Shown one piece after another: positions 1,212 to 2,657 of a DNA stretch of 27,773 nucleotides. Numbering within the stretch: the stretch's first letter is position 1; each line of letters starts with the position of its first letter. This DNA is from a virus (lineage: Duplodnaviria > Heunggongvirae > Uroviricota > Caudoviricetes). Both the position numbers and the translations under genes were made by a program. The DNA is taken from positions 1 to 27,773 of IMG/VR virus record IMGVR_UViG_2531839178_000008, one strand, 5' to 3'. Below the pieces are notes generated by a model. That model was not told where the DNA came from. It worked only from the letters and a program-made list of their open reading frames with translations, and did not search any database.

Positions 1212-2133
1212 CTAGGCTGTGTCCCTTAATCATCTGAGCTATAGTAACTGTCTGTTTACACAACATATTGAACTATGGCTCGCTACGACCTTCCCGATGA
1301 GGCATGGACCATCATCAAGCCCCTGTTACCTCCTGAACCCGCCACACCACGGGCCGGACGCCCATGGGCTGAGCACCGTAAAATCATCAATGGCATGTTC
1401 TGGGTGTTATGTTCCGGTGCACCATGGCGCGATTTACCCGAACGATATGGGTCATGGAAAACTGTTTATAACCGCTTTAACCGATGGTCAAAGTCAGGCG
1501 TGATTAATATTATTTTCAACAGGTTGCTTTCGCTACTTGATGCAAACGGCTTTATTGACTGGTCTGCCACCGCGCTGGATGGCAGTAATATCCGGGCGCT
1601 GAAATGTGCCGCCGGTGCTCAAAAAAACATCCCGATATCGACGGAGATAATGGGCTGGGTCGCTCTCGCGGCGGTTTTGGCACCAAAATCCATCTGGCAA
1701 CAGACGGAAGTGGCCTCCCGTTAAATATCGTGCTAAGCCCCGGACAAGCTCATGAAAGCCAGTTCGCGCAACGACTTCTGGACGGGATTGGCGTTCAGCG
1801 TCAGAACGGCAGCATGAAACGCCGTGGACATGCGGTACTGGCTGATAAAGCGTATTCAGGGCGCGCATTGCGCAACGAGCTGAAAAATAACGGTATAAAG
1901 GCAGTAATCCCCCGAAAGTCAAATGAGAAAATGGCATCGGATGGACGTGCACAGCTTGATCGTGATGCGTACTGCAATCGTAATGTCGTTGAACGGTGCT
2001 TTGGGCGGCTGAAAGAATATCGCCGCATCGCCACGCGTTACGACAAAACGGCGAGAAATTACCTGGCGATGGTGAAACTGGGCTGCATCCGACTCTTTTA
2101 TCAACGCTTACGTAATTAAGGGACACAGCCTAG
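1212..2133. mobile_element. IS5-family insertion sequence (IS427-group-like), about 0.92 kb
   Basis: Perfect 19-bp terminal inverted repeats CTAGGCTGTGTCCCTTAAT at 1212..1230 and 2115..2133 (reverse complement); two overlapping transposase frames inside. Exact ends are ambiguous because CTAG is palindromic (4-bp CTAG or 2-bp TA duplication). Confidence 0.85.
1275..2119 (+). CDS. IS transposase OrfAB (orfA 1275..1724, orfB frame to 2119) with a putative programmed -1 frameshift
   Basis: orfA N-terminus MARYDLPDEAWTIIKPLLPP resembles the DUF4096-type N-terminus of IS5-family transposases; orfB has a DDE-type C-terminus (RYDKTARNYLAMVKLGCIRL). orfB is in the -1 frame relative to orfA and the overlap contains an A7 slippery run at 1621..1627. 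Confidence 0.75.
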
Positions 2134-2303
2134 GCAGTTAACGTGACATTCCGCAATCACACCACCGGGTTCTCCTTTCCATTTTTGACAAACAAAAACT
2201 CCTGTTAAATTGCCATGCCGATTAACAGATGTATGCCCTACGATGTAGCTTCCTTTAGTTGCTTTTTCTGCCTTGGCACGCAGTGCCTGATAGTCAATCT
2301 TGC

Positions 2304-2657
2304 TCACTGGTTGCCTCCTTTGCGAATCTGTTCCGCCCATTCTTCTAGGGATTTCTCCGCATATTCACCAGACAGGCCATCAATCGGATGCGGTTCATTA
2401 GCCAACTCTTCTTTCGCTGACAGAATCATGCGTGTAACGTCGAAAACTTCACGTAAAGACTTATTGATAAATCCGTGATTGAACGCAGCAGCAAGACGGC
2501 TTGCGGTATAGTTAATACCCTCGTTGCGAGCCTCAGCACGTACTTCATCGAATTTACGCACCAGATATTCAGCGTTTGTTTCGTTAACCTTTAAATCTCG
2601 TGGGATGCATTTACCTTTCAGAAATCCATCCATCTCAATTAGTGACATTTGTTTCAT
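2304..2657 (-). CDS. hypothetical early-region phage protein
   Basis: Open frame with acidic protein-like composition; ATG at 2657 chosen over the listed GTG at 2675. No recognisable family. Confidence 0.45.

Follow-up and report, generated by a model that had tools for sequence, protein, structure and literature searches.

Which element has split the Ea22-like gene of a Shigella boydii prophage, where exactly does this element end, how are its two reading frames joined and what has become of the gene? The DNA analyzed here (the window, 27,773 bp) is the entire contig AKNA01000005.1 of NCBI assembly GCA_000268145.1. The window encodes the protein EIQ36478.1, listed as SB96558_5464 from Shigella boydii 965-58. 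We are highly confident that the locus represents an ISSfl7 insertion in an ea22-like gene of a S. boydii 965-58 prophage, with a transposase that would depend on recoding and a prophage gene that would be inactivated.

The interrupted gene and its prophage

AKNA01000005.1 is part of a lambdoid prophage, and its genes are arranged as follows.

Early-left operon, minus strand: N antiterminator, Nmad5, Rad52-type recombinase, SSB, exonuclease, Abc2 (anti-RecBCD), DUF2737, the Ea22-like gene and DUF551
Other genes of the contig: cI-type repressor, CII, replication gene, primase-helicase, NinB, antirepressors, Q, lysozyme, small terminase subunit and head genes

The cI-type repressor of the same prophage is frameshifted, and other insertion sequence (IS) insertions are present in relatives of this prophage. 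A scan for promoters and terminators in the region 800-2700 gave matches no commoner than in shuffled sequence. No claim is made for an outward IS promoter or for a terminator-like site at 1708-1689 (minus strand), since such scan hits occur at the frequency found in shuffled sequence. The Ea22-like gene itself is present in the following pieces.

886-2307, minus strand: whole Ead/Ea22-like gene, from GTG at 2307 to the stop at 886-888
2131..2307, minus strand: 5' part of the gene, codons 1-59, from GTG at 2307 to Leu59 (CTA, 2133-2131)
2116-2307, minus strand: 63-aa ORF of 59 native residues followed by IS-encoded GCVP and a stop; Ead_Ea22 product in the assembly
886..1212, minus strand: 3' part of the gene, codons 60-167 and stop, starting with Val60 (GTT, 1212-1210)
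886-1266, minus strand: chimeric 126-aa ORF with its ATG inside the left end of the IS; EIQ36478.1, SB96558_5464

The element is placed exactly between Leu59 (CTA) and Val60 (GTT), in the orientation opposite to that of the gene. The original prediction that removal of 918 bp restores one continuous reading frame was confirmed: this deletion fuses both minus-strand fragments in frame (...AECHVNC-L-VETDAQAYANAEF...). The restored ORF, estimated earlier at about 166 aa, has 167 aa when read from GTG 2307 and 178 aa when read from ATG 2340. GTG 2307 is preceded by AGGAGG at 6 nt upstream and overlaps the stop codon of the preceding ORF as GTGA. The interval 1212-2340 first assigned to the interrupted locus does cover the IS and the 5' part of the gene, but the 3' part extends to position 886. 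The Ea22-like label given to the gene from its sequence holds. Indeed, the 167-aa reconstruction matches the Pfam family Ead_Ea22 (PF13935) over positions 1-139 of 139 (E = 3e-35, 122.2 bits with a cut-off of 27). A protein search returned 5934 homologues at E <= 1e-20, of which the named ones are called ead/Ea22-like. The middle part of the Ead/Ea22-like protein is a coiled coil.

Uninterrupted alleles fit the reconstructed junction; a mismatch here, named beforehand as grounds for refutation, did not appear. In uninterrupted homologues the protein reads AECHVNCLVETD(A/V)QAYANAEF, without a gap over the junction. The repaired DNA aligns across the junction with two O157/Stx2a prophages over 655 ungapped nt (93.7 %), and with E. 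coli Z1323CEC0013 over 480 ungapped nt (95.2 %). The Z1323CEC0013 allele has exactly the empty site that was predicted, TTTCAACTAGGCAGTTAAC. Among uninterrupted proteins the best match is one of 257 aa from S. boydii, with 98 % identity over 96 % of the query (...AECHVNCLVETDVQAYANAEF...). It is encoded in a closely related prophage (S. boydii CP026846.1), which aligns with the window at 96-99.7 % identity over a large part of the first 8 kb. Its allele has CCAG instead of CTAG at the insertion site and thus lacks the preferred target.

No uninterrupted full-length copy of the exact 167-aa allele was found among the top protein hits. The closest hit continues into a fused DUF551 domain, which represents ordinary mosaicism rather than a second lesion. 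Alleles diverge beyond residue ~160 in the mosaic manner typical of the Ead/Ea22 family: the window has a separate 176-aa DUF551 gene downstream, while in the S. boydii relative DUF551 is fused to Ea22.

Identity, ends and target site of the element

The element and its borders comprise the following features.

1215..2130, plus strand: complete ISSfl7-type IS of the IS5 family with IS427-group architecture, 916 bp, ends GG...CC
1215..1230, plus strand: left inverted repeat (IRL), GGCTGTGTCCCTTAAT, perfect 16-nt reverse complement of 2115-2130
2115..2130, minus strand: right inverted repeat (IRR), perfect 16-nt reverse complement of 1215-1230
1213..1214: left copy of the TA duplication, within CTAG 1212-1215
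2131..2132: right copy of the TA duplication, within CTAG 2130-2133

The element had been assigned to the IS5 family from the letters of the sequence, and both its protein and its DNA bear this out: the fused transposase scores 319 bits on NF033580, and the DNA is 99.9 % identical to copies of the ISSfl7 family. A 922-bp stretch with the IS showed 99.9 % full-length identity to the copies of E. coli FDAARGOS_943 and CFSAN029787, and 99.3-99.8 % to others. Within 1215-2130 this amounts to one difference in 916 nt from the copies of these two strains, and to four differences in 916 nt from the copy on the invasion plasmid pINV. Matching copies are labelled "IS5 family transposase" or "IS5-like element ISSfl7 family transposase" at NCBI, and are annotated with a two-piece CDS marked "programmed frameshift". 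The copies given the ISSfl7 name by the PGAP pipeline are 99.3-99.9 % identical to the IS of the window. By its sequence the element is very probably ISSfl7, a name obtained via the NCBI annotation of these near-identical copies. Its placement in the IS427 group, suggested by architecture alone, agrees with its length, its target-site duplication and the layout of its ORFs.

ISSfl7 is rare in E. coli proper, where it was found in 46 of 5,426 complete genomes with a maximum of 36 copies per genome; the strain FDAARGOS_943 carries such a 36-copy family. It is frequently found on Shigella invasion plasmids: of 176 plasmid records with the element, 130 come from Shigella. The copy on pCP301 of S. 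flexneri 2a 301 is annotated as 'ISSfl1 ORF1/ORF2'. An ISSfl7 insertion in fimD has been published for another S. boydii strain (PMC4374849). The window holds one copy of the IS and no solo inverted repeats. The 16-mer GGCTGTGTCCCTTAAT occurs at exactly two places in the window, one on each strand, where 0.2 matches are expected by chance even when 3 mismatches are allowed.

Perfect inverted repeats of 19 bp with CTAG at both junctions had been described for this element. The 19-bp repeat is indeed perfect (CTAGGCTGTGTCCCTTAAT), but the IS itself contributes only 16 of its 19 bases; the remaining three consist of the duplicated TA (2 bp) and of the C/G at the outer edge of the palindromic target CTAG. 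The borders were derived from the flanks of other copies. Eight near-identical or 91 %-identical copies were compared first, and relatives (one genome per species) were then added, giving 61 full-length elements of 76-99.9 % identity from sources including Symbiopectobacterium, Klebsiella sp. WOUb02, Erwinia tracheiphila, Brenneria, Photorhabdus, Mixta, Enterobacter and Phytobacter. The terminal repeats are kept at the element ends in all relatives compared. In 58 of these 61 elements the ends GGCTGTGTCC...GGACACAGCC are flanked directly by TA on each side (TA-GGCTGTG...CACAGCC-TA), while the base outside TA varies independently per side. The contexts CTAG, TTAG and CTAA were seen 25, 14 and 13 times, respectively, among the 61. 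These constant TA flanks and variable outer bases indicate that the IS measures 916 bp (1215-2130) and has 16-bp inverted repeats. On sequence grounds, the element duplicates TA and prefers YTAR, especially CTAG. The contig contains six occurrences of CTAG, two of which represent the duplicated site, compared to ~56 expected from dinucleotide-preserving shuffles. This scarcity means that the IS struck one of only five preferred sites in the contig.

A 4-bp duplication of CTAG was considered as well. The IS would then have 914 bp and the flanking CTAGs would be direct repeats, as in IS5. IS5 proper makes 4-bp duplications at YTAR, both junctions in the window read CTAG, and the excision length is 918 bp under either boundary model, so this length fits both. 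However, TA abuts GG...CC on both sides in the 58 copies mentioned, and it stays constant in elements with unequal outer bases: TTAG...CTAG in L007, CTAG...CTAA in L008 and GTAG...CTAG in L010. The differences between the two sides in L007 and L008 exclude a 4-bp duplication. Duplications in the IS427 group, moreover, are mostly 2 bp (PMC3281130). The 4-bp model is effectively refuted by these flanks and is very improbable; TA is the true duplication and the IS comprises 916 bp. Less probable still is an artefact of the 2012 draft assembly, in the form of a collapsed or misjoined repeat. The source is a draft contig, and a homopolymer-length difference elsewhere in it could be a sequencing error, the T7 run at 9150-9156 being a doubtful stretch of this kind. 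Both junctions, however, coincide exactly with IS ends and show a matching TA duplication at a CTAG of the preferred kind, and the ORF recovered on removal of the IS agrees with homologues base for base. A misjoin would not lead to such an arrangement. The chance of such an artefact is negligible compared to that of a genuine insertion of the 916-bp IS.

The transposase and the recoding site

The coding features of the IS, all on the plus strand, are the following.

1275..1724, plus strand: orfA, 149 aa, zero frame, with the DUF4096 DNA-binding part and the first catalytic Asp, D102
1604..2119, plus strand: orfB frame, -1 relative to orfA, with D191, E240 and the Y-2-R-3-E-6-K signature
1275..1625 joined to 1625..2119, plus strand: fused CDS, 281 aa
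1621..1628, plus strand: A7C slippery run with the heptamer A AAA AAC at 1622-1628 in the orfA frame

The original prediction had read the IS as orfA and orfB with an A7 run (1621..1627) in the correct -1 relation; in agreement with this, the two ORFs overlap and orfB lies in the -1 frame. The fusion matches the NCBIfam model of IS5 family transposases (NF033580) over profile positions 2-257 of 258, well above the cut-off of 110 bits. It contains, in order, the Pfam domains DUF4096 (PF13340, E = 6e-30) and DDE_Tnp_1 (PF01609, E = 1.5e-21). The first catalytic residue, D102 (ALDGS), is encoded before the slip site, and D191 (LADKAY), E240 and the YREK signature are encoded after it; the Y-2-R-3-E-6-K signature corresponds to YCNRNVVERCFGRLK (fusion residues 233-247). 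Since the catalytic triad is divided between the frames, only the fusion can be a complete and active transposase. The annotation of the assembly itself gives a 281-aa product over 845 nt at the fused CDS. The exact fused 281-aa sequence is absent from the protein collection, probably because depositors translate the slip site differently.

The A7 run (1621-1627) is the sole A/T homopolymer run of at least 6 in the IS. Read in the orfA frame, the sequence CAA AAA AAC yields the canonical heptamer A AAA AAC. A7C is kept in nearly all relatives, at identities from 78 to 99.9 %, and the codon preceding it varies among them (GCT/GCG/GCC/GCA). The earlier interpretation of this run as a frameshift site is upheld by the programmed frameshift that NCBI annotates in the same element and by the conservation of A7C down to ~78 % identity. 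Variants were also found: one relative (L061) has A6 instead of A7, and A8 variants fuse the frames in the DNA of L026 and of L011 and L012, the latter two both with internal stops. A stimulatory RNA structure 3' of A7C was looked for. Folds of single sequences gave z-scores of only -1.75 and -1.86. A consensus fold of 13 sequences has a 15-pair stem in alignment columns 32-80 (window ~1632-1680) with one covarying pair, and the minimum-energy fold of the window's own sequence differs from this consensus hairpin. The stem region also encodes the conserved motif GRSRGGFGTK. No convincing Shine-Dalgarno-like element was found upstream near A7C.

It is proposed that the 281-aa transposase is made only via a -1 slip of the ribosome at A AAA AAC (1622-1628). 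Alternatively, RNA polymerase might add one A in the A7 run, which would yield the same 281-aa protein and leave the structural reading as it is. A run of seven A residues is a plausible template for such transcriptional slippage, which is also favoured by the natural frame-fusing A8 variants (L026, L011/L012) and by the finding of neither a convincing downstream stimulatory structure nor an upstream Shine-Dalgarno-like element. On the other hand, slippage-prone IS elements usually have longer runs, and the heptamer A AAA AAC fits the canonical X XXY YYZ pattern, with orfA in the proper register. Furthermore, the shift is treated as translational in the NCBI annotation and in the IS427-group literature (PMC3281130). 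Judged from these sequence features, ribosomal slippage is the likelier of the two mechanisms, and transcriptional slippage is held to be a real but lesser possibility. A different doubt concerns the activity of the element, as this copy might be a dead relic that has lost transposition. The T at 1973, the only base differing from the commonest copy, changes R234 to C inside the YxxR part of the YREK motif and is thus the single amino acid change relative to that copy. However, neither ORF is interrupted, the two inverted repeats match perfectly, and A7C as well as the DDE residues are intact. Residue 234 is Arg in most chromosomal copies and Cys in the window, but it is also Cys in the pINV plasmid copy. 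The element moreover differs at one of 916 nt from the 36-copy family of FDAARGOS_943. A dead relic is accordingly thought improbable, more so than transcriptional slippage. The IS is structurally intact by sequence, with perfect 16-bp repeats, open orfA and orfB and the DDE/YREK residues present.

OrfA alone, an HTH-type DNA-binding protein, would by analogy with other insertion sequences of two ORFs probably have a regulatory role. It is also conceivable, although rather doubtful, that ISSfl7-type elements possess a dedicated -1 recoding cassette consisting of A AAA AAC and the predicted stem 3-8 nt downstream. According to a survey of 2012, IS1 and IS3 were the only elements with demonstrated transframe proteins (PMC3281130). 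Demonstration of the cassette, if it exists, would provide direct experimental proof that programmed frameshifting occurs in the IS5 family. The joining of the two frames raises a question that concerns the IS427 group in general and not this locus in particular.

Consequences and comparison with known systems

Taken together, the data indicate that a single ISSfl7 copy entered the early-left (PL) operon of the lambdoid prophage of S. boydii 965-58 at a CTAG site, with duplication of this target's central TA. The gene is thereby split into a 59-aa N-terminal stub, followed by 4 IS-encoded residues, and a 108-aa C-terminal remainder. Nothing contradictory to this structural reading was found. 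In the public annotation the 63-aa stub and the chimeric 126-aa ORF are called as separate genes, and no Shine-Dalgarno sequence is evident before the ATG of the chimeric ORF. The insertion would inactivate the Ea22-like gene. The two small 'Ead_Ea22' ORFs and the chimeric 'hypothetical protein SB96558_5464' of the public annotation represent pieces of a single gene.

The insertion also appears to be recent. The chimeric 126-aa ORF is on record for AKNA01000005.1 only, and this ea22-like insertion site was found filled only in that contig. Neither a filled nor an empty version of this mosaic was found in E. coli complete genomes at a coverage of at least 80 %. The occurrence of the chimeric ORF on one contig and the absence of the mosaic from E. 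coli complete genomes make the insertion look recent and strain-specific. Shigella is a genus well known for IS expansion, and the insertion may be part of a general IS-mediated decay of Shigella prophages.

In phage lambda and in the Stx phage Phi24B, Ea22 is dispensable and promotes lysogeny (PMC7093339; PMC10834534). By analogy, loss of the Ea22-like allele studied here is unlikely to be lethal to the phage. Any pro-lysogenic function of this allele would likewise be an extrapolation, as such a role is known only from experiments on other Ea22 alleles (PMC7093339; PMC10834534). The present work gives the element its probable name (ISSfl7) and corrects its boundaries (916 bp, TA duplication). 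It adds one further example of IS-driven prophage decay in Shigella, of which the practical consequences are small, and it leaves the current understanding of insertion sequences and of Ea22 unchanged. The case concerns a known IS of known family and architecture that entered a dispensable prophage gene by simple insertion of the standard type, and not a new kind of element.

The closest known system is ISSfl7 itself, annotated as 'ISSfl1 ORF1/ORF2' in pCP301, with which the IS of the window shares 99.5-99.9 % nucleotide identity across all 916 bp, the inverted repeats, the two-ORF layout and A7C. The commonest chromosomal copies of ISSfl7 differ from it by the one substitution T1973 (R234C). 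At a wider distance, the element resembles the IS427 group, such as IS1248 and the ISPa-series of Paracoccus, in its small size, short repeats and 2-bp duplication, as well as in its overlapping ORFs with a frameshift motif and a DDE triad complete only in the fusion. Experimentally captured Paracoccus elements of this group measure 832-865 bp and have mostly 2-bp duplications; members of the group have two overlapping ORFs, a conserved frameshift motif and a DDE triad that is complete only in the fusion (PMC3281130). With 916 bp the IS of the window is slightly longer than these Paracoccus members. It lies within the length range of ~800-1000 bp used for the IS427 group, its TA duplication agrees with the 2 bp (range 2-4 bp) given for the group, and its overlapping ORFs, -1 motif and fusion-only DDE follow the same pattern. 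Membership of the IS5 family as a whole is in agreement with the DDE_Tnp_1-type residues D, D and E together with Y-2-R-3-E-6-K, and with short terminal inverted repeats starting with G, here 16 bp and perfect (GGCTGTGTCCCTTAAT).

IS5 proper of E. coli shares with the IS of the window a DDE_Tnp_1 transposase and a preference for YTAR/CTAG. It is ~1.2 kb in size, encodes its transposase in one ORF that needs no frameshift and makes a 4-bp duplication. The sequence of the window IS, in contrast, points to a 2-bp duplication and to a need for recoding.

The interrupted gene itself has its counterparts in lambda Ea22 and in the Ead/Ea22 proteins of lambdoid and Stx phages (PF13935), the model of which is matched over its full length by the allele of the window. 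In the early-left operon, lambda Ea22 and the interrupted gene share their position, with the recombination genes on one side and xis/int on the other. The Ead/Ea22-like family is highly mosaic, and the allele of the window, with 167 aa and a separate DUF551 gene, differs in this respect from its closest S. boydii counterpart, a 257-aa Ea22-DUF551 fusion.

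Target site and relatives of the insertion sequence

The tetranucleotide CTAG is strongly under-represented in the whole window, with six occurrences compared to ~56 ± 7 in dinucleotide-preserving shuffles. This scarce tetranucleotide is also the preferred target of the inserted IS5-family element, ISSfl7. The targeted site is present in the Ea22-like gene of the window only because the Leu59 codon is CTA; related Ea22-like alleles have CTG at this codon, resulting in CCAG and thus in absence of the target site.

CTAG sites, whole window (n = 6)
1212, 2130, 2345, 7077, 12550, 16254

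A scan of genome contigs for ISSfl7 relatives yielded 370 confirmed stretches, of which 80 were kept (loci L014-L093). Most of the 80 kept loci belong to three genomes in which these relatives have undergone massive expansion, namely Symbiopectobacterium purcellii, Symbiopectobacterium sp. RP and Klebsiella sp. WOUb02. A transposase with 97 % identity was also encountered on a scaffold that bears the label of the alphaproteobacterium Martelella alba, and one with 93 % identity on a Methylococcaceae MAG contig of 1.2 kb; both could reflect horizontal transfer or contamination. Several copies vary in the slippery run at which orfA and orfB are joined. An A8 run, fusing both frames at the DNA level, was found at three loci (L026, L011 and L012), the latter two of which carry internal stops as well.

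Slippery-run variants in ISSfl7 relatives
L026 ~847-854, A8
L011 and L012 ~709-716, A8
L061 ~847-852, A6, a single Erwinia tracheiphila copy

Insertions and an apparent frame break in the prophage lineage

Close relatives of the window prophage carry IS insertions that differ from each other's and from that of the window. The S. boydii CP026846.1 prophage harbours an IS3-family element between the Nmad5 gene and kil (L013 2324-3480, around window 5615), and in the E. coli FDAARGOS_944 prophage an HTH replication gene is split by ISEc20 of the IS110 family (L094 10013-11209). This prophage lineage is undergoing independent degradation by several insertion sequences.

In the window, the repressor gene falls into two reading frames because a homopolymer is one base short (T7 at 9150-9156). 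The FDAARGOS_944 prophage, 99.9 % identical, has T8 at the same run and encodes an intact XRE-family regulator of 235 aa. Either the T7 run is genuine and the frameshift inactivates the repressor, or the 2012 draft assembly contains a sequencing error in this homopolymer.

Window 8726-9433, minus strand, cI-type repressor (HTH + Peptidase_S24), two frames

Candidate intein and DUF551 modules

Window 11229-14135, plus strand, Toprim/AAA_25 primase-helicase by domain matches, 968 aa
Window 283-813, minus strand, separate DUF551 gene, 176 aa

The primase-helicase appears to carry an intein with a homing-endonuclease domain, since matches to Hom_end_hint (residues 379-424) and LAGLIDADG_3 (residues 579-634) lie inside the protein. 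FDAARGOS_944 has the same gene (2,907 bp), annotated there as a single 'toprim domain-containing protein'.

The last ~81 residues of the window DUF551 protein are identical to the corresponding part of residues ~165-257 of the Ea22-like homologue P0001. DUF551 has its own gene in the window but is fused to the Ea22-like protein in the S. boydii and E. coli alleles that come closest (257 aa), a difference that represents shuffling of modules at the coiled-coil end of genes of the Ea22-like type.
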